Notes under the pieces: generated by a model
What the model saw: only the letters and a program-made list of their open reading frames with translations
Database searches by the model: none
Told to the model about the DNA's origin: nothing
Virus record (IMG/VR): IMGVR_UViG_3300020044_009484
Span: 1 to 33,806 of that record
Length of the DNA: 33,806 nt
Strand: one strand, 5' to 3'
Source of the DNA: a virus
Lineage: Duplodnaviria; Caudoviricetes
Program-made: the position numbers and the translations under genes
Part shown: positions 1 through 33,806 of the stretch, piece by piece
Position numbering within the stretch: position 1 is the first letter of the stretch
How the letters are laid out: each line of letters begins with the position of its first letter

Positions 1-1239
1 TTGTGATGATGATGCTCCAGCGGCTGCTGGGGCTGCCATGACTGTGGCGATTACGGCGTTGATTGCTCGGCGCTTTCCGACGCTGACGGTGGACCCAGTG
101 GGCACATAAGTGTCGAATTTTCCGCTAAACACATCAATTTGTGCCTCAAAGGATTTCTTGACAAAGTCGGGGGCTGCCGACAGGGTTTCGGCGAGAGCGA
201 GGAGTTCCGTGTCGTTGAGGTTTTCGACCACTGCCTCGATTACATCAACAATCGCATCGACCTGTTCTGAGGTCAGTTCTTCGGCAATCGTCGGGTCAAG
301 CACGGCTTCTAAGTCATCGACAGTCACATCTTCTGGAGCGATTTCAGTCAGGGTTTCGACAGCGGCTTGAACCTCTGCGGGCGTTACCTGCTCTGGAATT
401 GTGGTGGTTGGGCTGGGTGCCTCGGTCGTCGTTGTGGTCTCTGGAATAGTGGTGGTTGCCAGCGGAACCGTGGTCGTGTTGAGGTGCATCGCATTGGTCG
501 TTGTTGTGACTGGAAGTGGAGCAGCGGTTGTCGTTGTCGTTGTCGTGGTGGTGGTGGTCGTGGTGGAAGTTGTGGTGGTTGTGGGAGGTTCAGTTGTCGT
601 CGTTGGCGGCTCAGTGGTCGTTGTAGGCGGTTCGGTAGTCGTCGTGGTCGTTGTGGTCGTTGTAGTGGTGGTGGTGGTTGTAGTGGCTTCTGGGAGCGCC
701 TGAACGGTAAAAGCAGAAGCAGGGATAATTTCCCACTCGTTGTTGACCATCCACCAAAGTTGAACCCAAGCACCGCCGCCGTTCTCGTAGAACCAGACGG
801 TTATCTGCTTTGAGACCGATTCTTGGAACTGCACGGGTTGAGAGACGGACCCGCCGCCTCCCTTATCTCGCCAGTCGTTGGTGATGAGAACCCCATCGAG
901 GTACAACTTCGTGCCGTCATCGGCTTTAGCCATGAACTGAACTGAGCAGGTGCATGGTGCCGTGATGTAGCCCTGATACTGGACCATGAAGTCCTCGTAC
1001 ATCTGGAATAGAGGTTTTTCATCGAAGTTATTTTCGATGTTTCCCTGCACAAAAGTACCGACGATTGGACGAGCGGGGGGTATTGGCGGTGAGGCGTTGT
1101 ACCCGTAGTTGTTGTAGACCGTGACGGTCACCCCGCTGACAATCGCATCGGCATGGGCAAAGCCCGCCCCAGTCAGGGACAGGAGCGGGACAGCGAAAAG
1201 AAGGAGGCTACTCGCCCTTCGTAGCGCCGAAGATTTCAT
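1..1239 (-). CDS. Secreted/surface PA14-domain protein with Thr/Pro-rich linker (3'-truncated by window; not in ORF track)
   Basis: Manual translation from ATG 1239 stays open to base 1. MKSSALRRASSLLLFAVPLLSLTGAGFAHA|DA looks like a signal peptide. PA14-type motifs ADDGTKLYLDG and WFYENGGGA follow, then a poly-Thr/TTTTEPP linker, an acidic helical region and a hydrophobic segment (RRAITAVIATVMAAPAAAG). Confidence 0.8.
   Translation of the reverse strand, partial: MKSSALRRASSLLLFAVPLLSLTGAGFAHADAIVSGVTVTVYNNYGYNASPPIPPARPIVGTFVQGNIENNFDEKPLFQMYEDFMVQYQGYITAPCTCSVQFMAKADDGTKLYLDGVLITNDWRDKGGGGSVSQPVQFQESVSKQITVWFYENGGGAWVQLWWMVNNEWEIIPASAFTVQALPEATTTTTTTTTTTTTTTTTEPPTTTTEPPTTTTEPPTTTTTSTTTTTTTTTTTTTAAPLPVTTTTNAMHLNTTTVPLATTTIPETTTTTEAPSPTTTIPEQVTPAEVQAAVETLTEIAPEDVTVDDLEAVLDPTIAEELTSEQVDAIVDVIEAVVENLNDTELLALAETLSAAPDFVKKSFEAQIDVFSGKFDTYVPTGSTVSVGKRRAINAVIATVMAAPAAAGASSSQ
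520..690 (-). repeat. Low-complexity Thr-codon tract with ~3 imperfect 21-bp TTTTEPP units
   Basis: Runs of gtcgtt/gtggtg on + strand that encode the poly-Thr linker of the PA14 protein. Confidence 0.75.
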
Positions 1240-1432
1240 TCAGTTCAGCCTTGGAGACCACGCCGTCGTCGGCGTAAGCACGAGCCAACTTCTCGATTAC
1301 TTGAGAGGCGGCAACGATTCCAGCAAGGGCTGCACCCTTTACGACTGAGACGCCCAGCATTGAAGCGCCACCAATCATGGCAAGGCTTGAGTAACCGAAT
1401 ACGGCAAAAACACGGAGAGCAATTTGCTTCAT
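1208..1432 (-). CDS. Small membrane protein, holin-like
   Basis: 74 aa with two hydrophobic segments and a charged C-terminus (DDGVVSKAELNEIF), located right after the tail genes. Confidence 0.55.
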   Translation of the reverse strand: MKQIALRVFAVFGYSSLAMIGGASMLGVSVVKGAALAGIVAASQVIEKLARAYADDGVVSKAELNEIFGATKGE

Positions 1433-1435: not shown

Positions 1436-1496
1436 GAACCTCTGGTCTGGGACACAGGGGTCACTGGGATAGCGGCACCATGCTAGTGCATCGCAT
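1436..1496 (-). promoter_or_regulatory. Candidate late promoter (ATGCGAT-N4-TAGCAT) plus structured leader
   Basis: Intergenic. Same layout as at 9570-9587 and 18546-18562. Leader contains CCCAGTGACC..CCCAGACC..GAGGTTC. Confidence 0.5.
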
Positions 1497-1832: not shown

Positions 1833-4549
1833 GTTTCAGTCCATCCTGTTCCAGAGCGGTTACCAGCGGGTCCATAATACTTAAATCCGCCGTAGCCACC
1901 AGTTCCTACAAGAACACTCGAACCGTCCGCACCTCGCCCATAAGTTGATGCCGTTCCGCCACCGTTCAAGCCTTGTCCATAATTTCCTTGACCGCCGCCA
2001 CCAGAACCGTAAGTAACGGTGTACACGGTTGAGCCTGAACCGCCGTTTCCTCCGTAGCCAACGCCCCCGTTTGCGCCCGCTGATGAATTTCCGCCGCCGC
2101 CGCCGCCGCCATAAATACCCCCAAAAATGTCTAAGTAGCCCGTGCCGCCAGTGTTCCCGTTTGCACTGTTGCCGCCGTTAGGGTCAAAATAACCTCCGAG
2201 TCCTGCGGCTTGTCCTGCCGCCGCCGAACCGAGATTTGTCAATGAACTAGAACCATCAACCGCCCCAATAACAGCGACCATGCTTGAGGAAAGAGTTATT
2301 GATGAGTTAGAAGTAGCGGTTCCTCCACCTCCGCCACCAAATGAGGCGCTTCCGCCTCCACCGATAACAAACGCATCGCTACCCGAAGTTAACGCTGCGC
2401 CCCCAGTTGGAGCAGTTGGCTTGGTCCAAGTACCACTTGCTGTGAAGCGAACTGTTTTCAACGCATAAGTGGTGAACGAGCCAGACAAGTATGTTGTTCC
2501 GACGGCATTTACGGCTTTGACTCGGTAGTAATAAAGCGTTCCGTTGGACAATCCACTTGCAGAACCAGAAACCGCTGTGGAGGTGCTTCCTGTAAGCGGC
2601 GATGGGGTAGCCGAAACGGTTGTCACTCCTGAAGCAAATGTTGAAGAGGTGCTGTATTGGAACTCCACAGTAGTCGAATCGCCATTCGCATTGACATTTG
2701 CTCCAAAGGTTGCGCTGTTCTGATTGAACGAAACCGATAGCGATGTAGCGGTTGGCGAAAGCAATGTGAACCGCTTGGAACCTTCGACCTTCATGCTCCA
2801 CTTTTTTGGTTCAAGAGTGAAATCGATGCTGTTGATAATCAAGTCTGTTACTAAGGCGGAACCGACCGATGGGGTGCGCTTGAAGGTCACACGGTCCAGC
2901 ACTTCTAGTTGAAGAAGAGTCTGCCAAACAGAGGGTGAACTTGTCTTTTTGCCGATTTCAATTGCGCTAACTGTCGGGACTATCTGCTTGTAAAAGGTCA
3001 GCCAGTGATTGGCGAGGTCCGCTGCCTCAGTTTCCGAACCGCTTTGACTGTCAATGGAGTGTGTGTGGCGACCGTAATCAGTTGCCGATGTTTCGTCACT
3101 CGCATAAGCCTGCAGACCGTTTGCCTGCTTTACCGTGACTTCATTGCGGAAGTTGTCGCCGTCGTACCAGATTTCGATGTCGCCGCTGTATTCGGTTCCT
3201 GAGCCGTCGTCTCCGATTGTGATTTGTGGCGTTGTCGAAGTTGCGTTAGTTGCAAAGTAGTTGCGATTGACGGTTTTTAGGACGCCTTCACGGGTGGCGA
3301 ACATGTACCCGCCTTCAGTCGACATGACCTGTTGTAGTGCTTCAGACACAATCGCATTGACGGCAGGAATACCATTAATAGTTCCAACTGGAGAACTATG
3401 AACCGATTTCAAGGTTGACCAAGATGACAAATCGGTCAGAGCAATCAAACGATTTACACGAGCGGTAGTGGATTCGTTCGAAGAACCAGACCCAAACTGA
3501 TAAATGGTGTCTATCTCGGTCGAAGTCAGAATTTTGTCAAAAATAGCGACTTCTTGATAAGTGATGTAGGTGAGCGAGATGTAATTGGTTGGAAAGAAAT
3601 TTATCGATGTGTTGACTCCAGTTGAAGCCATCGTTTGTGCAACGCCGTTGATGTACACCTGAACCGCTCCCGAAGATTTGGTGTATGTAATCGCATAATG
3701 CTTTGCAATGAGGTTTGTTGGATTGCGTCCAGTTTGTGACCATGCCTGATGAATGGTCCCAGAACGATTTGTTTCGACAAAAACACCGTATTCTCCCGTT
3801 GAGTATTCATAGTTGCCTTGAATAGCGATTGAATTGCCAGTGGAACCAAATACAAACACTTGTTCAGTGTTATTCGTGTCGTTCCATCTTGCCCAGAATG
3901 AGATTGTGATGTCCCCCGTGGTTGGGGTGGTACTCGTCGTGTAAACATACGGCGACTTAAAAAGGTCCGCAGAATTTCCGCTCAACCCCATGCCGAGCGG
4001 AAATGATGAAACCAACGGGACAGTTGAGCCAGATAGAGACAAATCTTTTGATGCCGAGCCAAAGTCTTTAATGGTTGATGAATCATTCGCATCAGAGCAC
4101 TTGTAGTAGTGAACTGGCGAAAGGGAGCGAGTGTAAATGTCGGCGAAGTCGTTTCGTAGGTTTGCTGTGTTGAGCAGACTGACAATGTCGTAAGCCTCAA
4201 TGGACACCGTCGAAATCTTGCCTGCTGAACCCCACGCCACAGGGAAACCATTGATGAAACCACGAAACATGATGTATTCGACACTGTTTGCGGTGCCCGT
4301 TATTTTTATCTGGCGTCTTGGTTTGAGGTCATTCGCATGAGCGCCACTTGAATTGAATGGGTCGAAGTAACGAGTGTTGTTGTTTAGGGTCAGCGAAGCA
4401 GTGGACACAAAAGACGAATCAAAGTCGTCGCTACGACCTCGATGGATTTTGCAGTCCAACACATAATCAGTGATGGGGTCCCAAGTGGGGCTTTCAACAT
4501 AAGGTCCATCAGTCCAAGCGATGTAGACCTTGAGTTCTGGGTAAGCCAT
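1829..4549 (-). CDS. Large tail-tip/minor tail protein (LamG/ConA-like, FN3-like and Gly-rich domains)
   Basis: 906 aa immediately after tape measure. LamG-like HYAITY..VQVYING..EVAIFDKILT; FN3-like GLSNGTLYYYRVKAVN; GGGG-rich C-terminus. Confidence 0.8.
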   Translation of the reverse strand: MAYPELKVYIAWTDGPYVESPTWDPITDYVLDCKIHRGRSDDFDSSFVSTASLTLNNNTRYFDPFNSSGAHANDLKPRRQIKITGTANSVEYIMFRGFINGFPVAWGSAGKISTVSIEAYDIVSLLNTANLRNDFADIYTRSLSPVHYYKCSDANDSSTIKDFGSASKDLSLSGSTVPLVSSFPLGMGLSGNSADLFKSPYVYTTSTTPTTGDITISFWARWNDTNNTEQVFVFGSTGNSIAIQGNYEYSTGEYGVFVETNRSGTIHQAWSQTGRNPTNLIAKHYAITYTKSSGAVQVYINGVAQTMASTGVNTSINFFPTNYISLTYITYQEVAIFDKILTSTEIDTIYQFGSGSSNESTTARVNRLIALTDLSSWSTLKSVHSSPVGTINGIPAVNAIVSEALQQVMSTEGGYMFATREGVLKTVNRNYFATNATSTTPQITIGDDGSGTEYSGDIEIWYDGDNFRNEVTVKQANGLQAYASDETSATDYGRHTHSIDSQSGSETEAADLANHWLTFYKQIVPTVSAIEIGKKTSSPSVWQTLLQLEVLDRVTFKRTPSVGSALVTDLIINSIDFTLEPKKWSMKVEGSKRFTLLSPTATSLSVSFNQNSATFGANVNANGDSTTVEFQYSTSSTFASGVTTVSATPSPLTGSTSTAVSGSASGLSNGTLYYYRVKAVNAVGTTYLSGSFTTYALKTVRFTASGTWTKPTAPTGGAALTSGSDAFVIGGGGSASFGGGGGGTATSNSSITLSSSMVAVIGAVDGSSSLTNLGSAAAGQAAGLGGYFDPNGGNSANGNTGGTGYLDIFGGIYGGGGGGGNSSAGANGGVGYGGNGGSGSTVYTVTYGSGGGGQGNYGQGLNGGGTASTYGRGADGSSVLVGTGGYGGFKYYGPAGNRSGTGWTET

Positions 4550-7548
4550 TACATGACCTTCAGTGGCAGACGACCGACACGCTTTTCATGTGATTGCAGG
4601 ACCTTAATTAGTTGACGGGCAATCTCTTGCTCGTCGCCGATTCCTGCTTGGACCGTGATGTGGTACGAGTTGCCCATCGCATTGCCGCCCTTGTTGAGAG
4701 GGATGACGGCTTCGTCTCGACCAGCCTCACCAAGCAAAGCGAGGGTTCCGCCGCTACGGGCACGGACGATGCCGCCCGTCGCCATTGGAGTGGCGAGGTC
4801 GCTAAGTGATGTCATCGAGAAAGCAATGTCAACACCGAAACTCTTTTGCAACTTGTCAATCTGAGCCTTGGTCATGCCCTTGGAACTCAAACGAAGGTTC
4901 AGTTTCTTTGCGGCATCGGTGATTCCCTTAACCAACTGCTCACCCTGTGACAGACCCTGCTTGTAGAACTGGTCCTTAGCAGCGTTGGCTGAATCATTCG
5001 AAGCCTTAATAAGTTCGTTGTACCAAGTGTTCGCATCGGAAACCGCCTGCTGACCGCCAGCAAGAATTTCCTCACCAATCTTGGTTCCAACTTCTGCTCC
5101 TGCAGCAACAATCTGAGCAATACCAGCCTCATTGAGTTGAGCAGCCCGCAACTGGTCAAGAATCTGACCAAACTTCTTAGCGTCGTCATACTGCTTCTTC
5201 AAAGCCTGCATGAAGGTCATCTTGTTTGACTCGGCGGAGGCGAGGTTGTCTGTTGCCTCCGAGTAATCTTGGATAGCACGGCTGTAGGCAGCCATGTCAC
5301 GGTTCGCCATAGCGGAGGCAACCGCTTCTTCGGCTTGGGCGACAGCGTCAAGAGCCGACTGATAATCCTTTTGTGATGACAGAGAATCACTCATCGCATT
5401 GGAGAAGGACCAGACATTCATCATGGCGGTCTTGATGCTCTTAGCAAAATCATCGGCACGGGTCTTAACTTGGTCAAAGAAGGCGTTGGCTTTTGCGACA
5501 GCATCCTCGCCGAGTTTCTTAGCGGCATCGACCAATTTTTTCATTGTGTTTGCGGCTTCCTCTTGTTGCTGAGCAACCTCTTCAGGGGTGGCTTTCGGCT
5601 TGTAATTGCCAGCACGATTTGCGGTTGAGTGCATTAACGCAATCATCTCAGGACTCATGTTTGAACCCCAACCGTTAATTGTGGTCCCCACTCGTTTTGC
5701 CTCGGCTTCAACGCCCGTCATACCAGACTTGACATTGTTAACTTTTGCCCCAGTGATGTCCAACTTCATGTTGATGTGGTCAATAGTGTCAATGTCTTTG
5801 TGAAATGGAATCTTGTTCCATGCTTTGATAATCAGGTTTACACCATCAATGAACTTATTCACAAACCATTCAACAATACCTAGCACCAAATTTATGGCAA
5901 ACTGGATAACCGAAACGATGGTGTTCCAAATACCTTTCAACGCTCTCCTGAACCATTCAAACTTTTTCCACATCAAAACCACGGCAACAACAAGAGCAAC
6001 AACAGCGGCAATAATCAGACCGATTGGGTTAGCAACCATCGAGGCGTTCAACGCATTTTGGGCTGCTGTGGCGGCAGTAGTCGCTGCTGTTTGAGCCGCT
6101 GTCGCTGCCGTCAGCGCCATTTCTGAACCAGAAGCGGTTGCAGCGGCGACCATTAACTCTGCTTGTGCAACTGCCAAAGCGGTTTGTGCTGCTGTCGCTG
6201 CAGCGGCTGCTGCTGCTTCTGCGGTCATAGTACCTGTGTGAGCAATTGCTGCGGTAACAATTCCCCAGATTTGCTTGGCACTACCCCAGATTGCTTGGAC
6301 TTTGCCGACAGCCTTGAAAGCAACATAAGCGCCAACTGCTGCCCCGATGACAGGTGTCAAAGCCTCAAGTGCTCCCTTATGGTCCGCAATAAAACCAGTT
6401 GCCGAAGAAACTGCTGTCGCCATAGTTCCAATAATGGGAACAAATTCGACAACCAATTGGGTAACCAAAGGCGCTATTACTGTGCTGAGGTCCATCATGG
6501 CTTGACCAATTGAAATAAACACGGGCTGCAAAGAAGGCAAAGCAGTAGCAATTTGAGCAACCACAGGAACAATCGACTGAACAGCAGCAACCATGATTGT
6601 TGATAAAGCCATCATCATTGGCTCGATAGCAGGCACCAATTTCTGGAAAGCATCCATCATCACTTGGACCATGTCATTGATTGGCTTAGTCATGGACTTC
6701 ATGGTTTTGCCAATCGCATCGTTGATGGCAGGCATTGCGTTTTTGATTCCCTCGGTGGCTGGAGCCATCATGTCGCCAAGCGCAATGTTGATGTTGTCCT
6801 TCAAAGTGGACATCAAACCAGTCAAAGTATTGGCTTGTTCAGCCATCATTCCTTTAACACGACCCATGGCTTCGCCTGAATAGTTCTCCAGACCAGACAT
6901 AAGGAGACCAACAGAATCTTGCAGTGTGCCCTTTTCGGTTGCTTTCTTGACCTCCGCAACCGACATTCCAGCAGCGGCTGCTAACGCATCCCAAGCGGGA
7001 ATACCAGCGTTAGCCAACTGCATCATGTCCTGACCAGTCACCTTGCCGACGAGGTTCATCTGCTGCAAGGCACGGGTTGCTGCAGCGATACCTTCAGCGC
7101 CCGTACCCATAGCAGCGGTGGAGTCACCGATGGCGGTCAAAAGAGGTTTAACACGCTCAGCGGCAACACCTGTGGTGAGCAACTTAGAAGCAGCATCACG
7201 AAGTTGAGGGAACTCGAAAGGAGTTGAAGCGGCAAAGTTTTGCAAGTCCTTGAACATTGCCTCTGCTTTTTCTTGACTACCAAGAAGAGTCTTGAACGAG
7301 ATGATGGCTTGTTCGTTTGCCATAGCAAACCCAATACCCATTTTTGCGCCCATCATGGCAGCGGTTTGCATCGCACCACCACCAAGAATTGCCGCCTTCG
7401 ACATAAGACCAAAACCACGCTGGGCGATTCCAGATTGACGCTGAACAGATTGCCCGAAGTTGTCGGCAGCATTTTGAGCACGATTGAACCCGCTGACCAT
7501 GTTGTCAGCGTTCGCCTTCAAGTGCGCTACGACCTCAAGCATTGCCAT
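4549..7548 (-). CDS. Tape measure protein
   Basis: 999 aa, Ala-rich and helical. Tape-measure N-terminal motif FKTLLGS..FAASTPFE; hydrophobic NPIGLIIAAVVAL; C-terminal ATGGIV..GEAG.EAVIPL. Confidence 0.95.
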   Translation of the reverse strand: MAMLEVVAHLKANADNMVSGFNRAQNAADNFGQSVQRQSGIAQRGFGLMSKAAILGGGAMQTAAMMGAKMGIGFAMANEQAIISFKTLLGSQEKAEAMFKDLQNFAASTPFEFPQLRDAASKLLTTGVAAERVKPLLTAIGDSTAAMGTGAEGIAAATRALQQMNLVGKVTGQDMMQLANAGIPAWDALAAAAGMSVAEVKKATEKGTLQDSVGLLMSGLENYSGEAMGRVKGMMAEQANTLTGLMSTLKDNINIALGDMMAPATEGIKNAMPAINDAIGKTMKSMTKPINDMVQVMMDAFQKLVPAIEPMMMALSTIMVAAVQSIVPVVAQIATALPSLQPVFISIGQAMMDLSTVIAPLVTQLVVEFVPIIGTMATAVSSATGFIADHKGALEALTPVIGAAVGAYVAFKAVGKVQAIWGSAKQIWGIVTAAIAHTGTMTAEAAAAAAATAAQTALAVAQAELMVAAATASGSEMALTAATAAQTAATTAATAAQNALNASMVANPIGLIIAAVVALVVAVVLMWKKFEWFRRALKGIWNTIVSVIQFAINLVLGIVEWFVNKFIDGVNLIIKAWNKIPFHKDIDTIDHINMKLDITGAKVNNVKSGMTGVEAEAKRVGTTINGWGSNMSPEMIALMHSTANRAGNYKPKATPEEVAQQQEEAANTMKKLVDAAKKLGEDAVAKANAFFDQVKTRADDFAKSIKTAMMNVWSFSNAMSDSLSSQKDYQSALDAVAQAEEAVASAMANRDMAAYSRAIQDYSEATDNLASAESNKMTFMQALKKQYDDAKKFGQILDQLRAAQLNEAGIAQIVAAGAEVGTKIGEEILAGGQQAVSDANTWYNELIKASNDSANAAKDQFYKQGLSQGEQLVKGITDAAKKLNLRLSSKGMTKAQIDKLQKSFGVDIAFSMTSLSDLATPMATGGIVRARSGGTLALLGEAGRDEAVIPLNKGGNAMGNSYHITVQAGIGDEQEIARQLIKVLQSHEKRVGRLPLKVM

Positions 7549-7561
7549 CTTTAGTTCATCC

Positions 7562-7735
7562 TCATCGTTGTTGCTGCTCCCAGTTCCTTATTTTGTAGAG
7601 AGCCATCCACTCCGTAATCTCCTGCGATGAAATCGCACGGTGACCTCCAGAGCCGTAGAGCAACTCTCCGACTGTTCGCCCCAGCGATTCGGCTAACTCA
7701 AAGAGGAAGCGTTGGCTGGGGCGTTCGAGAAATCC
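7562..7735 (-). CDS. -1 frameshift extension of tail assembly chaperone (gpGT-like)
   Basis: The -1 frame from G GAT TTC (7735-7729) reads FLERPSQRFLFELAESLGRTVGELL..ISSQEITEWMALYKIRNWEQQQR* and fills the gap to the tape measure gene. Confidence 0.7.
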   Translation of the reverse strand, partial: GFLERPSQRFLFELAESLGRTVGELLYGSGGHRAISSQEITEWMALYKIRNWEQQQR

Positions 7736-8076
7736 TTGCCTGCCTTGTCGACTGCATCTTCAAGCAATCCAGAGATTCGCATAGCGGTGTTGACAATGAG
7801 GTCCAGTGCGGCACCTGATTTGAGCATCAGGGTCTCACGGTCGCTCTCGGCAAATACTTGCTCATCTGTTTCAGGGTCGTATGTACACATGATGACGATG
7901 TCTGGCATCATCTTTGCAAAGTTCATTACGCCGTCGTTATCGGCAGCGTTCTGAATCATTGAGGTACGGGCGGCTCCTGACATGCCATGAACAGAAACCT
8001 TGCAGCCCCACTGGGGGACATCGATGATTTCTTTCTGGACATCGTCACAAGACAGGATGTGGTCACGAAGGGACAC
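7693..8076 (-). CDS. Tail assembly chaperone (gpG-like)
   Basis: 127 aa between tail tube and tape measure; V.VPQWG..V.V.GMSG..R pattern. Confidence 0.8.
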   Translation of the reverse strand: MSLRDHILSCDDVQKEIIDVPQWGCKVSVHGMSGAARTSMIQNAADNDGVMNFAKMMPDIVIMCTYDPETDEQVFAESDRETLMLKSGAALDLIVNTAMRISGLLEDAVDKAGKDFSNAPANASSLS

Positions 8077-8096
8077 GGGTTTTCTCCTTGTAAGAG

Positions 8097-8516
8097 TTAG
8101 GCGAAGGTGCCACGGGTGACTGTACCAGTCACCTGAAACTCTGCCGAGAAAGTAACGACATCAGCGACAGGGCTGCTTGTCTCATACGAGGTCATGAGAC
8201 CTTCGCCTGTGTACTTAACTGCGCCAGTGGCTGTGCCTTCTGGACCGTACTCGAAGGACACCGAAGCGTCTTGTCCGAGGATGCCAGCGAGGTGTGCGTC
8301 GAGGGTTGCGTCCCAAGTTCCCTTGATGGAAACGGTTGAGTCGTTGAGACCTACGACATAGGTCTTTGCTCCGCCTGCTGTCTGGAAAGAGGTTGTTTCG
8401 CCTGTTTCGATTGAGCGTGGGAGTGAAACCTCGTTGAGGTAGGAAGAGATGTCGGTCAGTGTTCCGCCCGAGTTATCAACCTTGAACGAAGCGTTTTTGC
8501 CGTGCTTGAAAGCCAT
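8097..8516 (-). CDS. Major tail (tube) protein
   Basis: 139 aa: ETTSF..AKTYVVGLND.TVS.KG, then SYETSSPVADVVTFSAEFQVTG. Sits directly before the chaperone. Confidence 0.85.
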   Translation of the reverse strand: MAFKHGKNASFKVDNSGGTLTDISSYLNEVSLPRSIETGETTSFQTAGGAKTYVVGLNDSTVSIKGTWDATLDAHLAGILGQDASVSFEYGPEGTATGAVKYTGEGLMTSYETSSPVADVVTFSAEFQVTGTVTRGTFA

Positions 8517-25563: not shown

Positions 25564-26557
25564 CGAGGAACTCCTTCTGAGCAGCCAAGGCTAATTCGCA
25601 TGCTTCGGTGAATACCAGCGCCTTGCCCACGGGTGTGGTGTGGTCTGCGAAACCACGGCGTGAAATACCGTTTGCAATGCCCCATTTGTCCATCACATTC
25701 AAAAGTTGTTTTTGTGGGGCGTTGATTCTGATGATGGAGATTTGTGTTGGTCGCATCGTCGACCCGAGGGCTGCTGCAGCCCAGCGGTGATGTCCGTCCA
25801 TGACGAAACCGTCTGACGAAACGACAATTGAGCCAGTCGGGTCCGCTGAGAAGGCTTTTGCTCCCCGAGCGGATTCCCTGCCCAGAATTTCAGCGGATGA
25901 TTTGCCGTTGATGTCTTTCTGGGTTGGCTTGAGAGATGCTGGGTCGACCGATTCGTGAGAAACCGTTAGCCCTTGCTTTTTGACATCTGCAATGAATTCG
26001 GCTTTTCGAGCGGTTGGGACCTGCGGCATGTCCTCACGATTTTTTGTCCCTGCTATCGCATTGAAGAACAATGTGCCTGTGATTTGGACATCTGAAAGGT
26101 CCTCTGAGCCGTCGCCAGAAGCCAGACCTTGGACATACGACGGGACTTGGTCCTTGCCGACTGTGGTCAAAGGGGGCTTAGTGCCGCCCTTGCTACCCCA
26201 GCGAACCTGTGCCGCATAGGACGCTGCAGCAGAACGAGACCCAAATTGACGCTTTTGGATGTCATGTTCGATGAGGTCGCTCTTGATGACCCAGAGTTTG
26301 CAGAGAGCCATCGGCTCAATCTGCCCCTCAACGATTTCGCATGCCTGACCGCCTTCGTAGAACGAGCAGTTGGCACACATCAAACCCTCTTCGGCAAAAG
26401 GGTTTTCGTTTTCCGACATGTAATGGGCACCGTCTGGACCGCTTGACTGGTCAAACATGCCAAACGCATCGACGATGATTTCAAGCGACTGATACAGAGC
26501 CTGTTGGCGGGGTGTCAGGTCGTCGATTTCGTCCACTGCTGTATCGTACCGACCCAA
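25550..26557 (-). CDS. HiPIP-like Cys4 domain + RWG tag + ParB/Srx-like domain
   Basis: CANCSFY..ACEIVEG.I.P.ALCKLW; then R.DMPQV, LKPTQ, IVVSSDGFVMDGHHRWAA. Start uncertain (GTG ~26536 possible). Confidence 0.78.
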   Translation of the reverse strand: MGRYDTAVDEIDDLTPRQQALYQSLEIIVDAFGMFDQSSGPDGAHYMSENENPFAEEGLMCANCSFYEGGQACEIVEGQIEPMALCKLWVIKSDLIEHDIQKRQFGSRSAAASYAAQVRWGSKGGTKPPLTTVGKDQVPSYVQGLASGDGSEDLSDVQITGTLFFNAIAGTKNREDMPQVPTARKAEFIADVKKQGLTVSHESVDPASLKPTQKDINGKSSAEILGRESARGAKAFSADPTGSIVVSSDGFVMDGHHRWAAAALGSTMRPTQISIIRINAPQKQLLNVMDKWGIANGISRRGFADHTTPVGKALVFTEACELALAAQKEFLDANN

Positions 26558-26584
26558 CTATGGTCAAGCCGTACTACAGGTCGG

Positions 26585-27250
26585 TCAAGCCATCGGCTTG
26601 TTTTCAAGAACATAAAACTTGGCTGCAAAATTCATCATTGCCGATTGAATCTTGTCGACGATTGCACCAACCGCTGGAAAATCTCTTCCGTATTGCCCTT
26701 GGGTTCCAAATTTCCAGCCGATGTCATCTGCCTTGTTTTGTATGTTGCCAACTCTTTTGACCGCTGAATCACCAGAATTACGAAAATTTCCGACATGATT
26801 GTAAAGTTCGTGAGCCTTATCGCCATTGACTTTCGCAGGGTTCACATGTGCCGTCATAATCTCTTTATGGACAATTGGAGAAATTTCTTTCAAAGCGTCC
26901 AATTCTGGTTTTATTTCGTCTTTGAAGTCTTGACCCATTGGGACTCCACGCTCTGCTGCTGTCGGAGGTCGTAATCCACCATTTTCCTGTTCGACAGCCA
27001 ATTCTCCGTTTGACATGACATGCACTGGAGAGTCAGTAATAAGTCCATGAGTTGACGATGTAGAACCTGATTCTGCTTGGCGAGCGCCCCAACGAGCACG
27101 AGCGGCATAGCGTCCAGCCTCTGAACGGTTACCTCCAAAGGATTGTGCCTTCTCAAGGTGCAACGCATCCTCGGCAGACATCTCATTGCCATCCTCGTCG
27201 ATGAAGGTCAGACCCATCAGTCCGTCGTATTGAAAGTTTTCTTTGCTCAT
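26585..27250 (-). CDS. RWG-tag protein with unknown payload
   Basis: Short acidic leader, then LEKAQSFGGNRSEAGRYAARARWG. Confidence 0.8.
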   Translation of the reverse strand: MSKENFQYDGLMGLTFIDEDGNEMSAEDALHLEKAQSFGGNRSEAGRYAARARWGARQAESGSTSSTHGLITDSPVHVMSNGELAVEQENGGLRPPTAAERGVPMGQDFKDEIKPELDALKEISPIVHKEIMTAHVNPAKVNGDKAHELYNHVGNFRNSGDSAVKRVGNIQNKADDIGWKFGTQGQYGRDFPAVGAIVDKIQSAMMNFAAKFYVLENKPMA

Positions 27251-29577
27251 TCCATTACCACCTTAATGACTTTGGTGTAGTTCGGTCTGTTCCGACCGCC
27301 GAATTGGTTTGGTTCATCACTGATTGCCCAAACTTTGAACTTTGCCTTACGAGGTAATAGTACCTCGTGTTCCGTCTTGTGCATACTTCTTTTACCCAAG
27401 ATAGGGTTCATCGGCAAAACTTTTGTGCCTTTTCTGACCGCAATTTCGAAGCGGATGCCAGTTATTCCGCCCCACTGTTGGGCAAGAGGCAAGGATGTTG
27501 AGGTTGATGTGAATCCCTCGTCAGAGAATGATTCACCGACTTTCAAAAGAGAGAAGAATCGAACCGCTCTTTCGCCGTCTTTATTTCGACCAAAATCCAC
27601 TCCACGGTGAACAATCAAGTCTGTGGGCAGAGGTACGGCTGCTTCGAAAGCACGGTCCACACCAACCGCTGCAGCGGTTCTGTCGTTGCCGTCACGAAGT
27701 TCAGCATTGATTACCTTGCCCCTCATTTGGTATGCGACAACGGAGTCTCGATTTTTCATGGACATGATGCCGTCAGAACCCTCTGGGTACATCGCATCGA
27801 GAATCTGGTTGGCGTCATCTCTGCTACGAAATGGCACTGTTGACGGGTCGAACGCTGGGGTTTCTTCCCCTGCTGTGTTCCCCCAGCGAATTCTGGCGGC
27901 GTATTGGGCTGCTTCTGACCGTGAACCGAAACGACGCTCACGGGCTTTTTCCACTCCGCCAGCGGGTTCAAGGACAAAGGTCAAGGTGAGACCTTCGCCA
28001 GAGATGTTTTGCCACTCGCCGTATTCCCGTTTGACTAATCGCATACGGGTGTTGCGGGGGAGAAGAACTTCTTTCTCTCCTGCGTAGGAATGTTTGGTGC
28101 CAATCATTGTGTTGATGGGCAAGACTTTGCTGCCTTCTGGACAGACAACTTTGAATCTGATTCGGCTTCTAGCGCCGAATTCATCGCCGATTTTGGTGCT
28201 GGTGGAAGTTGAGCCGAACGCTGGGTCGCTAAAGGATTGTCCAACTTTCATTCCGTCAAAGAAGGCAATTGTTGCTTTTCCGTCGTCGGTGAAGTTTTTG
28301 ACATCCAAGCCTCGGTGCAGGACTATTGCCTTGGTTAGTGGTTCTGCAGCCTCAAAAGCGGAATCAATTTGTCCAACCGTTGAATAAGGTCGAATGACTA
28401 CGCCTTCTTTGGCTTGTCCTCGGAGAGCGCCATTGATTGCCCAGCCTTCATCGGTGTATTCCCTGATGGCTGCTTCATGACCTGATGTGAATGGGTAATC
28501 CTCAGAATCAGAGTATGGATACAAACTGTCTAGGTATTGCTCCATCTCGTTGGAGGTGACTTCTCGTACTGAGAGGGGGTCAAACTCTGGTGCTTTCTTA
28601 CCCCAGCGGACCTGTGCGGCATAACGAGCAGCGGCGGAACGGTCCCCGCCAAACGACTGCTTAGCCTTGTCCAGTTGCTCTGATTTGACTGCTGCTGCAA
28701 AACCAGAACCGTCATCAGTTAGCGCCGTTGAGTGAACAATCTTTTTCCCTTCGAAAGTCATTTTCTCCGCTGCGGTCAGCATCGCCGTGGCGATACCTTT
28801 GCGTTTCCAACCGTCAGTGACAGCAATGTGGGTGATTTCAACCTCTCCAGTTGGCTTTCCAACAGTCAAATTTTTACTTCTGCCGTGCAGTTTCAGTTCG
28901 TTCGCATCGAGATACCCAATCTTTTGCCCATTGACATAAGCGTCAACTCGGGCACTTTGAACTCCAAGTCTGTATTCAGGCGTGAAATTTGGGTCATCAG
29001 CCAAAGCGGGCGGTAACCAATTTGGTTCTTTATCATAGTCTCTGTTTCCAGAAGCACGAAGTTGGACCTTGTCGCCATCTTCTGTAATGAATTCAAAATC
29101 GCCGCTTCTAACTTGCTCGTTTCTTTCGCCTTTTCGCTCATAAAATTCGCCAACTTGTGTAATGACTGCTCGGCGAGATTCAGACGGAGATTCTGTTTTT
29201 GTTCGATTACCCCAGCGAACTTGGGCAGCGTGACGACCTGCAGCAGAACGGTCCCCACCAAAAGAAGCCTTCTCGATGTCGTTCGCATCAGGGAAAATCA
29301 AATCGTCGCCGACGGTTACATCTGACTGTGGATTGAGGATGGTCTGGAAATCGGCGACCAGAAACACGGCTTCAGAAATAACGGCGTAAGCGCCCGATTC
29401 GTTATCCAGACTGGGTTTCACCATGATTACGGCTGAGCCGCACGGCAAGTTGTAGCCCTCAGCAATTAGGCGGTCGATGATTGGTTTGACCGTCGGGATG
29501 GTGCATCGCATGGACCCGTTGGACCATTCGGCTTCGTGGAAAACGCCGTCAACTTGGAACTCCCAGATAAGACTCAT
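27247..29577 (-). CDS. Polyprotein: GNAT acetyltransferase + two VIP2/Alt-like ADP-ribosyltransferases, each preceded by an RWG tag
   Basis: GNAT: IAV..GWKRKGIATAML. ART1: INGALRG/LHRG/STST/EKEVLLPR. ART2: INAELR/VHRG/STST/EHEVLLPR (R-STS-ExE). Confidence 0.88.
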   Translation of the reverse strand: MSLIWEFQVDGVFHEAEWSNGSMRCTIPTVKPIIDRLIAEGYNLPCGSAVIMVKPSLDNESGAYAVISEAVFLVADFQTILNPQSDVTVGDDLIFPDANDIEKASFGGDRSAAGRHAAQVRWGNRTKTESPSESRRAVITQVGEFYERKGERNEQVRSGDFEFITEDGDKVQLRASGNRDYDKEPNWLPPALADDPNFTPEYRLGVQSARVDAYVNGQKIGYLDANELKLHGRSKNLTVGKPTGEVEITHIAVTDGWKRKGIATAMLTAAEKMTFEGKKIVHSTALTDDGSGFAAAVKSEQLDKAKQSFGGDRSAAARYAAQVRWGKKAPEFDPLSVREVTSNEMEQYLDSLYPYSDSEDYPFTSGHEAAIREYTDEGWAINGALRGQAKEGVVIRPYSTVGQIDSAFEAAEPLTKAIVLHRGLDVKNFTDDGKATIAFFDGMKVGQSFSDPAFGSTSTSTKIGDEFGARSRIRFKVVCPEGSKVLPINTMIGTKHSYAGEKEVLLPRNTRMRLVKREYGEWQNISGEGLTLTFVLEPAGGVEKARERRFGSRSEAAQYAARIRWGNTAGEETPAFDPSTVPFRSRDDANQILDAMYPEGSDGIMSMKNRDSVVAYQMRGKVINAELRDGNDRTAAAVGVDRAFEAAVPLPTDLIVHRGVDFGRNKDGERAVRFFSLLKVGESFSDEGFTSTSTSLPLAQQWGGITGIRFEIAVRKGTKVLPMNPILGKRSMHKTEHEVLLPRKAKFKVWAISDEPNQFGGRNRPNYTKVIKVVME

Positions 29578-32500
29578 GCTGACGCCATCACTCCCAGAAC
29601 GAACGCCATGTGGTCGTTATCGAAATTGTCTCTGTTGCCGCCAAGCACTTGTTCGAATCCTGTGGTCATAATTTCAAAGGCTGGGTATCGGCTGTTATTT
29701 TCTTGGTCTCGGAAAAGACCCGTTTTGCGTGTTGCCCTGTCATAGCGGCGTCCGCTGTACAGATTCGAGAATGTGTCTCGGTCAAGTTCCAGTGTTTGCC
29801 CGCCTACGGTTTTTGCTCCGACACGAGTTTCACGCTTTGTGGACCTGACACGAGATGTTAAAGATGTGTTCTTTCCGCTGATGTCAAAACCTGTTGTTCT
29901 GTGGGTGATGAACGCCACTTCAAGGGCTGCGATAGCGGGGCGGTAGTGAGTGACGAAGTGTTGGGTTTCGTGTCCAATCACTCGAAGATTGTCTTTTTCT
30001 CCTCTTCCGTTGATGGTTCCCATTGTCGGGATGTTGATGACGGGTTGTGTTACAGAACCTTGCGGGATGCTGAATGAGCCGTTACTGACGCCGACATGAG
30101 AGTTCAGTTGAACATTTGAACCTTTTGTGGCGTTGGTCCAATCGGTTGGCATGACTTTGCCGACTGTTGAGAACGCTCCAAGGGTGTCTTGAAACGCCAC
30201 AGGGCTGGTGGCAAGGGTGTGTGGGGCTGTTGGGGCGAAGTCGAAAGTGCCGCCACATGGTCGAACTTCGGCGACTACCTGCTGCATTGCTTTCGCATAA
30301 GCGTCGTGCAGTTGCTCTTTGTCTGTTTTGTCCAGAGTGCCTGCAGCGATTTGTTGTTTGACACGGTCGACTGCTTCGATGTTCATTTTGTCGCCCAGAG
30401 CAATCGCACGGTCGTGAAGGTCTGCCACTTTTGGTGATGGAATCATCTCTTCGTTGGCGGTGTTGATTTGAATGTCGCCTTTTTCGTCATTCCAAGCGCC
30501 TTTTGCCTTCGGATTTCTGATGCTCATTGGGCTGGACCGTTGCATGTTTTCGAAACTGACCGATTGATTCAGCAGAAACATTTCTTTGCGTAGCGCCTCG
30601 GCTTCCTCTCGCATCGCCTTCATGTGAGGCTTTTCAGCGGGTGTATCACTAGATGTTGTGCCCCAGCGGATACGGGCTGCGTATTGAGCGGCTTCGGCAC
30701 GAGTAGAGAACTTGCGCTTACGACCCTTCTCAACGACCAAAGAATCAACGGCATCCCAGATACGAGCAACAGTGTTATTCAGGTCAACCGTCGACGATTT
30801 AGCAACATCTACTGGGTCAGGAAAAATTTTGAACTTGCCTGCTCCGTCTGTTCCGTCGCCAAGGATGACAATTGGAATTCCTTGTTTTTTAGCGGCTTTA
30901 ACTAACGCTCTGGACGGTTTTGTGCCAGAAAAGGCAATGTAGGAAATGTCCGACAATTTCAAACCGCCGTGGATTTGGGCTTCGGCATAACGAACAGGCT
31001 TGCCTTGTGAAACCTGACTCAGCCATTCACTGGAGTTGGTTGGAGAAGATTCATCTGTCCTCACCCGCAATTGACCCGAGGTAATTCGTCCGTTTACAGG
31101 TGAAGCCGCACGAACATTCTTCAGCGAATCAAAATTGGTGAAAGTGGAGCGGTCACCAACTTGTGGTTTTGCAACAAATTGAACGGTTCCGTACTGACTT
31201 GAACCGTTTGCCCCGCCGTGTTGAATACCCAAAGGATGAAGGCTCGCATAGATAGGGCGACGAGAAGGCTCAGCCAGAGGGTGAACACCAAAACTTGCTG
31301 CTTCGTGGACCGCTCGCATACCAAGGCTTAGTGTTCCACCACTCTGCTTTGTTTCGAACTGCGTGGTGATGTGCCCAGTTTCCAAAATGCTGACAGCGGT
31401 CTTTTCGCTACGAGTCAAAGCAATTTTCTTCATTGGAGAGGCAACTAGAAGTTTTGTGTCGGCAATTGCCTCTGCAGAGCGACCCGCTTCTCTAATTTCC
31501 ATGTGACGCCCCATCGTCGCATTTGCCATTGCGTTAGCAAGATTCTGTCTGTTCTGTTCTTGCTGACCGTTGTAGGTGTAATGATTATCGTAAACATTTG
31601 ATGGATGATTCGGTGGCTTTATTTTCTCTGGCTCAAAAGCAGCCATCAGAGAAAAAGCGTCTCCTGAATCTTTGCTATTGGCATTGGTCTGGTCAGTATC
31701 GAAGCCTCTTTTTTCCAGTGATTTGATTGTTTCTGGAGACAAGCCATCCGAGTTGAGATGTCCGAGGTAATAGGCATTTAGTTCTTTGTGCAAGCGGTAG
31801 TAATCACTTTGTGCGTTTCCAGAATCAATCACCATGGAACCGTTCTCAAGGGCAATTAGACCCTCTTGAAGGTGTGGCGGCATGCCCTCAAAAGTAAATG
31901 GGATGTACGGTGCCCCTGTTGCGATGGCGACATTGACATCCATCGTTGGAGGGGGCAGTGCATCTAAAGCATCGTTTCGTGTTGTCGCATCAGTGCTTCG
32001 GTTGCCCCAACGAATTTGAGCGGCATGACGCCCAGCCTCAGACCGTGAAGCAAATCGGCGTTCACGAGTTTTTTCTGTTGGTTCTGCTGGTTCGGCAACA
32101 ATGTCCCACGGTTGCGAGAACATCGAATAAATGTTGAGAACTGGTATTTCTTTACCAAGTTCGTCGATGACATGACCTGACGGGAATGTTTCCTCAAGCG
32201 GCGTTCCTGCTCGCAGGGTCGTGAACCCTGTTTGATACAAAGAGCGTTCGCCGTCGGTGGCAATCAATCGCATCATGCCGCTCTTGGCAACCTCGGCAGG
32301 TTCAGGAAGAATTTTCATCTTGCCTGTTCGGTCCCTTGGTTCTGTGCCAATCGAAATTACGGGGATGCCATGTTTTGCGGCTCTCTGGACCAAATCACTT
32401 GTTCGTCTGTTTGCCACGATGTAAGCAACATCAGAAAGTCTTACGCCACCATGGATTTGCGCTTCCGAATACTCCGTTCGGTCACCACGCCTAATTTTCC

Positions 32501-33806
32501 CAACTTTGTCCGAGGGATGAATTGGAGCATCTTTGGGGAACTTGCTGTATGGGTGTGCTTGACCCTTGTTGATTGGTCCTCGTACTGGCGAAGGATTGCG
32601 ATTTTGCCCAAGAGAATCAACAACCGAAAATGTTGAGCGGTCCGAAACTTGTGGTTTCATTACCAACTGAATAGTTCCGTATTGGCTTGCTCCCGTGGCA
32701 TACGGGTGTTGAACACCAACAGGATGAAGCGTCGCATAAACAGGTCGACGGTCAGGCAATGTTGCTGGGTGTGTGCCGTAGGCAACGGCTTCATGGGCTG
32801 CTCGACCTTTAGGGTTGTATGCCCCTTGGCTGCTTCTAGTTTCAAACTGAGTGGTGATTCGACCTCCAGTAAGAATTGCTGAGGCACCTGCTTCGGTGAC
32901 CGTCATTGCAATTTTCATTTCTGGGTGAGATACCAAATCTTTGGTGTCTTTTAGAGCCTCTGCCTCTTGACCGATGAGATACTGATTTTCTCTGTGACGA
33001 ATAACTGTTTGACGAGCCATGCTGCTGGCAAGGTCAAGGCGCTCACTAGCACGGTCTTGGTCTGCTTGTGTTCCTGTATTCGGCTTGAATTGCTGATAAT
33101 GCTTACCGAATTTTCTCATTTCGGCTTGATTCTCTGGAGAAATGTTGTCTGGACTCAACACTTTTGAGTAGTAAGCAGTGAGTTTTGCTTCAAGCACCAG
33201 TTCTTCGGTGTACGGCAGACTGCTCGTTTCTGTTTTAAGCAGACCCTCTTGAATGTCTGGGGGGAGACTTTCAAACAAAAGCGGTTTGTATGGAGCGCCA
33301 GTCGTAATTGCCTCGTTGACATCGTCGGTCGGCTCCATTGGAACACCATTCGATGCTGCAGAAGCGTTCGCATTGGGAGTTGTAGTCCCCCATCGAATTC
33401 GTGCAGCGTATCGAGCGGCTTCTGCTCTCGAAGCGAATTGCCTCTTACGACCTTTTCCCAATGGTTCGTCTGGAGTATCAATGATTTCCCAAGAATCATC
33501 TCTAAACATCGCATAGATGTTCTTAACTGGGATAATCACGCCCTCTTCGTCAACAACATGACCTGTTGGGACGGTTTCCTCAAGGTCCGTGCCTTGTTCG
33601 TCGTGAATCTTTTGCAGACTCGTGAATTTGTTCGCTAGGTTCTGCGCTTTCGCCGTGGACTCTTTCAGTGCGTCCACGCCCTCCCATCGCCGCCCGGTGA
33701 ACTTTGCGGAATTGAACTTCCAAAACTTCGCGAGCGGCAGAGCGACCGCCTGAGTAGTCAACGCCATCTTCAACCACTCCGCGAAGATGCGGCGCTCAGC
33801 AGTAGA
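29574..33806 (-). CDS. Large polyprotein: two DUF3626-like domains + HExxH domain, each preceded by an RWG tag (5' end beyond window)
   Basis: The frame stays open past TTG 33773 to the window edge (STAERRIFAEWL). Duplicated TQFET..S.G / RP.YA.L / QYG / Y.EAQIHGG domain; GHETQH..YSGR.Y..FEIMTTGFE at the C-terminus. Confidence 0.8.
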   Translation of the reverse strand, partial: STAERRIFAEWLKMALTTQAVALPLAKFWKFNSAKFTGRRWEGVDALKESTAKAQNLANKFTSLQKIHDEQGTDLEETVPTGHVVDEEGVIIPVKNIYAMFRDDSWEIIDTPDEPLGKGRKRQFASRAEAARYAARIRWGTTTPNANASAASNGVPMEPTDDVNEAITTGAPYKPLLFESLPPDIQEGLLKTETSSLPYTEELVLEAKLTAYYSKVLSPDNISPENQAEMRKFGKHYQQFKPNTGTQADQDRASERLDLASSMARQTVIRHRENQYLIGQEAEALKDTKDLVSHPEMKIAMTVTEAGASAILTGGRITTQFETRSSQGAYNPKGRAAHEAVAYGTHPATLPDRRPVYATLHPVGVQHPYATGASQYGTIQLVMKPQVSDRSTFSVVDSLGQNRNPSPVRGPINKGQAHPYSKFPKDAPIHPSDKVGKIRRGDRTEYSEAQIHGGVRLSDVAYIVANRRTSDLVQRAAKHGIPVISIGTEPRDRTGKMKILPEPAEVAKSGMMRLIATDGERSLYQTGFTTLRAGTPLEETFPSGHVIDELGKEIPVLNIYSMFSQPWDIVAEPAEPTEKTRERRFASRSEAGRHAAQIRWGNRSTDATTRNDALDALPPPTMDVNVAIATGAPYIPFTFEGMPPHLQEGLIALENGSMVIDSGNAQSDYYRLHKELNAYYLGHLNSDGLSPETIKSLEKRGFDTDQTNANSKDSGDAFSLMAAFEPEKIKPPNHPSNVYDNHYTYNGQQEQNRQNLANAMANATMGRHMEIREAGRSAEAIADTKLLVASPMKKIALTRSEKTAVSILETGHITTQFETKQSGGTLSLGMRAVHEAASFGVHPLAEPSRRPIYASLHPLGIQHGGANGSSQYGTVQFVAKPQVGDRSTFTNFDSLKNVRAASPVNGRITSGQLRVRTDESSPTNSSEWLSQVSQGKPVRYAEAQIHGGLKLSDISYIAFSGTKPSRALVKAAKKQGIPIVILGDGTDGAGKFKIFPDPVDVAKSSTVDLNNTVARIWDAVDSLVVEKGRKRKFSTRAEAAQYAARIRWGTTSSDTPAEKPHMKAMREEAEALRKEMFLLNQSVSFENMQRSSPMSIRNPKAKGAWNDEKGDIQINTANEEMIPSPKVADLHDRAIALGDKMNIEAVDRVKQQIAAGTLDKTDKEQLHDAYAKAMQQVVAEVRPCGGTFDFAPTAPHTLATSPVAFQDTLGAFSTVGKVMPTDWTNATKGSNVQLNSHVGVSNGSFSIPQGSVTQPVINIPTMGTINGRGEKDNLRVIGHETQHFVTHYRPAIAALEVAFITHRTTGFDISGKNTSLTSRVRSTKRETRVGAKTVGGQTLELDRDTFSNLYSGRRYDRATRKTGLFRDQENNSRYPAFEIMTTGFEQVLGGNRDNFDNDHMAFVLGVMASA

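Follow-up and report, generated by a model that had tools for sequence, protein, structure and literature searches.

A strand-polar ATGCG(A/T) lattice in an actinobacterial phage family, with a possible role as target of a ParB and methyltransferase pair

Oriented and dispersed words in described systems

Many phages carry ParB-terminase modification cassettes, whose predicted role is DNA modification at the time of packaging; the accessible part of PMC4738411 gives this role only as a prediction and describes neither a target site nor a genome-wide lattice. We analysed a 33,806-nt stretch of phage DNA, here called the window. In its close relatives, as in the ParB-Tls methylase loci of the same source, a ParB gene and a neighbouring methyltransferase-fold gene immediately precede the terminase. 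However, the ParB-Tls enzymes belong, in that text, to the N6A (DPPY/NPPY) clade, whereas the enzyme of the window's relatives is Trm1-like.

Other systems resemble the short word that recurs throughout the window. The WACTRTGAC/TACTRTGMC motif of the Pseudomonas phages Rembedalsseter and tf is likewise asymmetric, one-stranded, mostly coding, family-wide and of unknown function (PMC11780129). It is a nick-associated word of 9 bp in about 9–13 copies toward one end, whereas the phage lattice has 6 bp and 120–190 copies, is evenly spread with a floor on its gaps, and is known from sequence alone. Cluster A mycobacteriophages have stoperators (L5 gp71 type) that are also asymmetric and dispersed over an actinobacterial phage genome, and whose orientation follows transcription, with which that of the lattice coincides; in the accessible text of PMC9283540 they are 13-mers at more than 20 sites, placed at promoters and in short stretches between genes of a temperate phage with a repressor. 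In contrast, the lattice is an intragenic 6-mer with mobile sites in phages where we found no tyrosine integrase. Instead of the 13-bp asymmetric L5-type consensus we observed 6 bp plus a weak upstream pyrimidine, with an 11-bp subclass at 9 of 83 sites.

HIP1 (GCGATCGC) of cyanobacteria shares with the lattice the character of a hyper-abundant, intragenic, quasi-periodic short word, and is recognised by methylases; as portrayed in the accessible portions of PMC5861425 and PMC13756078, it is palindromic, chromosomal and phylum-wide, whereas the phage word is viral, asymmetric and polar, and lineages have swapped it for others. Type III/MANTIS sites, such as the 36 EcoP15I sites of T7 (10.64898/2026.09.23.753747), are asymmetric 6-bp direct repeats with one strand depleted. 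That bias arises by loss, whereas the phage lattice shows strong gain, even spacing and maintained density. In the open-licence literature searched, we found no earlier description of such a lattice.

The lattice in the window

What the sites have in common is the hexamer ATGCG(A/T), mostly in its A form. ATGCGA occurs 68 times on the minus (coding) strand of the window and twice on the plus strand. The weaker variant ATGCGT is found 15 times on the minus strand and never on the plus strand, at sites that occupy gaps left in the ATGCGA lattice, and all 29 copies of the heptamer ATGCGAT are on the minus strand.

252..33514, minus strand: whole extent of the ATGCGA lattice, 68 sites, given in the next five lines as TCGCAT on the plus strand
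Part 1: 252, 489, 1143, 1491, 1760, 2686, 3100, 3352, 3691, 4087, 4333, 4677, 5031, 5394
Part 2: 6714, 7777, 8549, 8945, 9322, 9582, 10302, 10513, 10908, 11516, 11780, 12433, 12852, 13226
Part 3: 13464, 13829, 14123, 14461, 14862, 15186, 15573, 16832, 17111, 18221, 18557, 19200, 19421, 20539
Part 4: 21394, 21613, 22839, 23084, 23700, 24720, 25347, 25596, 25751, 26056, 26337, 27792, 28039, 28902
Part 5: 29283, 29506, 30293, 30609, 31244, 31314, 31517, 31985, 32268, 32732, 33368, 33509
2371..27168, minus strand: ATGCGT variant, as ACGCAT on the plus strand at 2371, 2461, 6051, 6984, 10177, 11148, 12156, 16233, 17864, 21203, 22026, 22425, 24558, 26464, 27163
17246..17251, plus strand: opposite-orientation ATGCGA, inside the major capsid gene
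27732..27737, plus strand: second opposite-orientation ATGCGA

The lattice is a strand-polar nucleic-acid signal that is under selection and independent of reading frame. Coding regions hold 64 copies of ATGCGA (one site counted twice, in two overlapping ORFs), compared with 7.8 +/- 2.5 expected from 1000 synonymous shuffles, the highest of which reached 16, and by this measure ATGCGA ranks first among all hexamers (z about 23). We reject a codon or dinucleotide artefact; the excess survives synonymous shuffling. Of the 68 frame-1 opportunities ([DNYH]-A-[IMTNK]), 46 spell ATGCGA, and GCG is the least-used alanine codon in the window (186 of 1263). The reverse orientation is depleted, with 2 copies against 8.1 expected, a count equally low in 10 of the 1000 shuffles. 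A pyrimidine is favoured two bases upstream of ATGCGA, weakly yet clear of the null, and the remaining flank preferences mostly track codon structure.

The spacing of sites is also constrained. Gaps below 200 bp between ATGCGA sites number 3 in the window, where 22 are expected, and for ATGCG(A/T) gaps below 100 bp number 2 versus 18 in the window, 7 versus 52 in the relative G021 and 1 versus 24 in G027; in G032 there are none among 138. Among the 11 other most frequent hexamers, a similar deficit is seen only in the overlapping GATGCG. Within genes lie 63 of the 68 ATGCGA sites (the coding fraction of the window is 97%), and gene starts are not favoured, with 6 sites within 50 bp against 7.2 expected.

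Beyond the hexamer, the 11-mer ATGCG(A/T)TGCAC is enriched, at 9 of 83 sites versus 0.07 expected. It can be read as a pseudo-palindrome, ATGCG-W-TGCAC or RTGCR-W-YGCAY, several copies are close to gene starts, and the extended form is confined to the window's subclade.

484..494, minus strand: 11-mer ATGCGATGCAC, in the Thr-rich linker of a PA14-domain gene
1486..1496, minus strand: 11-mer, intergenic
10508..10518, minus strand: 11-mer, within two overlapping small ORFs
13221..13231, minus strand: 11-mer, within a Ser/Gly/Thr-repeat gene
20534..20544, minus strand: 11-mer
22420..22430, minus strand: 11-mer, T variant ATGCGTTGCAC
23079..23089, minus strand: 11-mer, at the start of a ferritin/Dps-like gene
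27158..27168, minus strand: 11-mer, T variant
29501..29511, minus strand: 11-mer, at the start of an ADP-ribosyltransferase/GNAT gene

The first-pass annotation had taken this 11-mer as the motif. Its seven exact one-strand copies are those of ATGCGATGCAC listed above, all on the minus strand (484, 1486, 10508, 13221, 20534, 23079 and 29501), and to its one-mismatch copies at 25342 and 27787 we add three, at 1755, 22420 and 27158, again all on the minus strand; exact and one-mismatch copies together number 12 against 0.56 expected. The 20–30 TCGCATC heptamers it estimated on the plus strand are 27, all in that orientation (5.45 expected on both strands). The 11-mer is a real subclass of 9 copies, but the shared unit is the hexamer, and the opposite-orientation copies it had not noticed are rare rather than absent. 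Its reading of a DNA- or RNA-level signal that falls in different frames (DAMH, SMRCT and TNAMH) holds, including under the codon-aware null that it had proposed.

We found no structured RNA or tRNA in searches of the window. Eight 4-bp palindromes are missing or nearly missing from it. Three DNA sequencing runs match the window, all labelled freshwater, from one study and with small shares; none of those listed is RNA.

Relatives and the gene pair upstream of the terminase

The lattice spans the whole genomes of relatives. In G021 (61.5 kb, with terminal repeats) the ratio of orientations is 121:5 for ATGCGA and 73:6 for ATGCGT, and in G032, which uses the A form alone, it is 139:6; G025 prefers the T form. 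Complete relatives have 110 coding-strand hits versus 22.5 expected and 123 versus 30.1. Between relatives, site positions turn over while density stays constant: of 24 sites each in the window and G011, 9 are in common, and of 15 and 14 sites in the window and L008, 4 are. Carriers span 44–60% GC and 70–98% capsid identity, and palindrome avoidance, like GC, differs among them. In G023, whose tail block is unrelated to the window's, that block has a sparser and less strand-biased lattice (13:4 in 11.5 kb versus 48:1 in 24.1 kb). Polarity matches the direction of transcription in all ATGCGW genomes seen, where the genes are co-oriented. The signal likely acts as DNA rather than RNA, and only likely because every ATGCGA phage seen has this gene arrangement; pointers to DNA are the lattice of G005, which runs in both orientations, and two reverse-strand genes of G001 in which polarity does not flip (4:2, too few sites).

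Close relatives carry a PF02195 ParB gene and a 192-aa SAM-fold gene between WhiB and the terminase. The pair lies outside the window, upstream of the terminase in relatives (for example L109:10377-11542). Of 28 loci retrieved through the methyltransferase alignment, many of them redundant, 27 show a clear polar excess and the 28th a weak one. The word also differs when another ParB cassette takes this position. G001, with a capsid identity of 87%, has no copy of this methyltransferase-fold gene; its slot between WhiB and the terminase contains two ParB genes with TAGT, MTase, MgsA_C, WbqC and PIG-L, and it uses GGGATC (178:51) with a gap deficit of its own. G005, whose cassette we take to be IbrA/IbrB-like, has the densest lattice, of CTCGAH in both orientations, though its genes are co-oriented. 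We detected no lattice in G002, G003, G016, G017 and phage Ottawa, which have ParB cassettes and might conceal a short or degenerate site. Unrelated PA14-bearing phages are without the ATGCGA word, and Dulem virus 36, with a ParB and a 32% homolog, has no lattice.

The 192-aa protein has the predicted fold of a class I SAM methyltransferase (pLDDT 87). Trm1 is the best profile match, with 25 of 40 family members matching weakly (best E 5e-4). A PDB sequence search gave no match, and structure searches matched it only to the widespread SAM fold, with a best Z of 12.7 and many ties. The motifs DAFAG and DLDAFG are intact. N6-adenine methyltransferases have the catalytic motif (D/N)PP(Y/F), described in part in the accessible text of PMC5512222. 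This motif is absent, DLDAFG standing in its place. No target-recognition domain is obvious in the protein, and its ParB partner bears a conserved basic KRKR patch.

Distant homologs did not serve as independent contrasts. Around them we found the ATGCGW lattice in 0 of 61 loci of at least 7 kb (this excludes 18 shorter loci, and several weak genome-contig hits could fall outside the family); cyanobacterial HIP1 appeared in one locus, and two borderline polar words otherwise. A 145-aa putative peptidase and the RW cargo peptide track the lattice as well as the methyltransferase does. In a quick terminase tree the lattice carriers form a single clade, so that only two or three independent events underlie the link between gene and lattice. 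As other candidate readers, an HNH protein is disfavoured by its 52–55% identity in G001, which uses another word, and the only shared HTH protein, which we presume to be Ner-like, by its variable recognition helix and the lack of a G032 homolog by BLAST.

Possible roles of the lattice

Our leading, tentative reading is that the phage's own ParB and Trm1-like methyltransferase pair docks at or targets ATGCG(A/T), giving a one-strand 'self' mark for a directional process; the link between gene pair and lattice is correlational. The pair would read ATGCG(A/T) and methylate the DNA, and the Trm1-like fold hints at an exocyclic amine, possibly N2 of guanine. A chemical mark would sit on one strand every 300–500 bases and cover about 100–250 bp per side, so that closer sites would add nothing or carry a cost. 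Polarity would follow the machine reading the mark, in a process that would most likely be packaging or entry into a heavily restricting host. A dimeric reader would find its full, high-affinity site in the 11-mer and a half-site plus centre in the hexamer.

An unlikely alternative is that ATGCGW is bound by the RW helix that ADP-ribosyltransferase, zeta, GNAT and further head proteins carry, which would space cargo one way for co-ejection.

20580..33773, minus strand: head-region genes with 12 copies of the peptide RS(A/E)A(G/A)xYAAxxRW

The peptide has 3–12 copies in 9 of 9 lattice-bearing records tested and is absent from all 8 records that lack ATGCGW. Its core, small-faced and flanked by Arg, hardly varies, and a preceding Lys may be a protease site. 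However, G005, with the densest lattice, has no RW-type tag by the patterns used, identical peptide text accompanies differing A/T preferences in G021 and G028, G002 and G003 carry a different tag about 30 times without showing a lattice, and neither the Atlas nor cultured phages gave an informative match. It seems quite unlikely that the words are programmed single-strand nick sites of the kind known from T5, tf, phiKMV and the WACTRTGAC phages, with either the ParB domain or the HNH protein making the cut. The precedent is a one-strand motif, 88% in coding sequence and kept across a phage family (PMC11780129), and the window motif is likewise one-strand, enriched and mostly coding. Nicks would account for one-strand use and for the rarity of gaps below 100 bp, which by a rough estimate falls below even the neutral background (2 versus 7, 7 versus 31 and 0 versus 16). 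Against this, opposite-strand sites are not kept apart from forward sites (13 of 66 within 50 bp versus 14.2 expected; 19 versus 26.5 within 100 bp), the lattice is about ten times as dense as the 13-nick precedent, the HNH protein is 52–55% identical in G001, which has its own word, and G005 uses both strands.

We consider it improbable that the phage mimics a host-encoded polar signal (Chi-like, translocase-orienting) or that Type III/MANTIS-type avoidance produced the strand bias. The phage does rely on host replication proteins (a lambda-O-like initiator), reverse ATGCGA sites are depleted, and MANTIS and Type III select for single-strand depletion (10.64898/2026.09.23.753747). However, avoidance yields depletion rather than a 4–8-fold gain with even spacing, and GC and palindrome avoidance vary among carriers. 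Fetched bacterial contig DNA has ATGCGA on both strands; in 10 genomes belonging to the same class as an Acidimicrobiaceae bin, which may not be the class of the host, it occurs 1–13 times per strand with no marked polarity in each of 20 sampled 20-kb stretches, whereas the phage has about 40 copies in that length. Equally improbable is a transcription-level element, whether a stoperator-like roadblock, antitermination or an RNA signal, perhaps limited to the 11-mer subclass. The match of polarity to transcription, the Ner-like HTH gene common to most carriers and the 11-mers near gene starts speak for it; the intragenic sites without start bias, their turnover, the variable recognition helix with no G032 homolog and the two orientations in G005 speak against it. 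The first-pass analogy to stoperators is not supported, on these grounds and on site length (6 bp), and a PF00589 tyrosine integrase was found in none of five near-complete relatives. Stoperators are unlikely, and the modification or packaging sites that it had also offered are nearer the evidence.

A wider proposal, more doubtful than the first, is a swappable genome 'barcode' in this actinobacterial phage family. Each ParB cassette would read its own word (ATGCGW, GGGATC or CTCGAH), the genome would be rewritten by synonymous codons into an even lattice, and the marks, possibly N2-methylguanine made by a first Trm1-like DNA methyltransferase, would be checked by the packaging motor or shield DNA on entry. 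The phage genomes name candidate targets of ParB cassettes, three words in one phage family. If the link between cassette and word holds, a spacing constraint of one site per few hundred bases in one orientation would steer codon choice genome-wide, and a new DNA base modification may be involved. Even if another protein reads the sites, the lattice is real, and it is conserved in density rather than position.

A strand-polarised lattice of ATGCG(A/T)

The hexamer ATGCGA, the common unit of the array, occurs 68 times on the coding strand of the window and twice on the other, and ATGCGT 15 times and not at all, respectively. All motif counts of the first-pass annotation, which had described a polarised 11-mer scattered through the window, were reproduced on recount, and the enrichment it had reported persists against a codon-preserving null: the 64 ATGCGA hits in coding regions compare with 7.8 +/- 2.5 expected from 1000 synonymous shuffles, and the reverse-strand count falls below its expectation (2 versus 8.1). 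Coding-region hits use all three reading frames (50, 11, and 3), and in frame 1 the word is spelled at 46 of the 68 places permitted by the protein, despite requiring the rarest Ala codon. Sixty-three of the 68 sites are intragenic, with no clustering at gene starts (6 within 50 bp versus 7.2 expected). The lattice is real and strongly selected.

Its spacing is also constrained. ATGCGA gaps below 200 bp number 3 in the window, versus 22 expected. For ATGCG(A/T), gaps below 100 bp number 2 versus 18 in the window, 7 versus 52 in genome G021, and 1 versus 24 in genome G027; genome G032 has none among 138. The deficit at 100 bp is not significant in G026, which has the thinnest array (0 versus 2.6). 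By a rough estimate, short gaps are below even the neutral background. Codon-aligned orthologues of the window and genome G011 contain 24 sites each, nine in common, and those of the window and locus L008 contain 15 and 14, four in common. Because site number is constant while positions shift, these alignments indicate selection on density and orientation rather than on position.

The 11-mer proves to be a true second tier, with ATGCG(A/T)TGCAC at 9 of 83 sites versus 0.07 expected. Each of the 11 records in the window's subclade has it, at positions that differ between them, and 11 lattice-bearing records from further away all lack it. Set against its own reverse complement, the 11-mer reads as the pseudo-palindrome RTGCR-W-YGCAY, a form that a dimeric reader would favour.

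Genome context and alternative words

The 33.8-kb window is the entire viral contig, and its head-cargo, capsid, tail, and PA14-domain genes all lie on the - strand. The head-cargo genes include:

22458-23111, - strand, ferritin/Dps-like gene

Twelve copies of a peptide, (K)xxFGGNRS(A/E)A(G/A)xYAAxxRW, lie on head-region proteins (20580-33773, - strand) with ADP-ribosyltransferase, GNAT, zeta-toxin, DUF3626, and XkdF-protease domains; this RW peptide is possibly a signal for capsid targeting or ejection. Other tags are found in relatives (KHPGHADQSVHG in genome G001 and KHLAGQHDQSSHG in G002 and G003).

The other half of the genome, as seen in close relatives, encodes WhiB, a lambda-O-like initiator, HNH, RusA, an amidoligase and amidotransferase, a ParB_N protein with a 192-aa partner, GP88, and terminase, likewise all co-oriented, and the ATGCGA array extends across the terminase and replication regions. 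The WhiB gene suggests a host among the actinobacteria; of cultured phages, Arthrobacter phage Ottawa matches best in the capsid (59%). Eight 4-bp palindromes are absent (ACGT, AGCT, ATAT, GATC, GGCC, and TATA) or nearly so (CCGG, 1; CGCG, 2) in the window, a sign of restriction pressure. Loci of G021 and G027 have no such avoidance, and G021 encodes a 643-aa C5 methyltransferase.

Where capsid identity is at least 92%, the viral loci (12 of 12) are biased to ATGCGA on the gene strand, and 20 loci of the same search at 76% or less lack this bias. The complete genome G021 (capsid 70-72%) has gene-strand to opposite-strand counts of 121:5 for ATGCGA and 73:6 for ATGCGT, and G032 and G033, with a 49% methyltransferase homolog, have 139:6 and 122:4. 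The one locus at 87% in the capsid search, G001, instead uses GGGATC, whose counts over 57.7 kb are 178:51 and whose short gaps are likewise too few. In G005 (loci L070 and L071; capsid 71%), CTCGAH occurs 176 times in 36 kb, 100 times in one orientation and 76 in the other, with a longest gap of 455 bp and 15 gaps below 80 bp versus 56 expected; the perfect palindrome CTCGAG is absent. Contiguous and gapped word scans found no lattice in G002, G003, G016, G017, Ottawa, and others. Three ParB-like genes precede the terminase in Ottawa (L088), where all 22 copies of CACCGGCA are on the strand of the genes, versus 1.9 expected. In two unrelated PA14-bearing phages (L074 and L075), the palindrome CTTAAG is enriched (26 versus 4 expected).

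Candidate reader and competing explanations

The 192-aa partner of ParB has the predicted fold of a class I SAM methyltransferase (pLDDT 87). Its family comprises more than 1000 clusters, and Trm1 is weakly its nearest profile (25 of 40 members match, best E 5e-4). It correlates with the lattice: of 28 loci fetched by methyltransferase alignment, complete G021 among them, 27 have a clear polar excess of ATGCGA or ATGCGT, and one a weak excess. G001, the genome with the GGGATC lattice, lacks this gene, and in the slot before the terminase it has a ParB-glycosyltransferase cassette, likely for DNA glycosylation:

G001 44478-49819 (L061:4478-9819), two ParB genes, TET-associated glycosyltransferase, methyltransferase, MgsA_C, WbqC, and PIG-L

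Against the link, carriers form a single clade in a quick terminase tree, ParB cassettes without lattices exist, the RW peptide and a putative peptidase track the lattice as well as the methyltransferase does, and no ATGCGW lattice was found in 61 loci around distant methyltransferase homologs or in Dulem virus 36. Borderline polar words occur beside two distant homologs (GCTGGAG, 21:1, in L242; GATGAG, 20:2, in L227). A common HTH protein and HNH are poor candidate readers because the HTH recognition helix varies and HNH is conserved across genomes with different words.

Our leading but tentative reading is that the sites are putative targets of the phage's own ParB-methyltransferase module, which would mark one strand once per few hundred bases, the marks being read by a process that runs in one direction, for instance packaging or entry. 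The data establish the lattice, its constraints, and the correlation with the genes, whereas binding, chemistry, and purpose are what we infer here. It is rather unlikely that the RW helix instead anchors virion cargo at ATGCGW sites. Programmed nicks are somewhat less probable still, as sites on opposite strands are not kept apart. We give little credence to a host signal, which was not seen in 10 candidate-class genomes, and as little to a transcription element; causes beyond these are about equally improbable.

Relation to known systems

Like stoperators, as they appear in portions of PMC9283540, the lattice is a dispersed, oriented phage word; the earlier analogy to them nonetheless fails on motif length (6 bp) and on the intragenic placement free of start bias. 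TLS repeats (in part of PMC11447400) and nick motifs (in part of PMC11780129) are known words of this dispersed, oriented type, and in evenness the lattice resembles HIP1 (PMC5861425). It is not of the restriction-avoidance kind, as compared with passages of the MANTIS preprint (10.64898/2026.09.23.753747). Excerpts of PMC4738411 predict that ParB-terminase loci modify DNA during packaging, and ParB nuclease activity and cargo proteins are treated in parts of PMC5512222. Our search of open-licence literature returned no account of the ATGCG(A/T) word or of such a lattice. The lattice adds to the dispersed recognition sites of phages, here with a candidate enzyme open to test.
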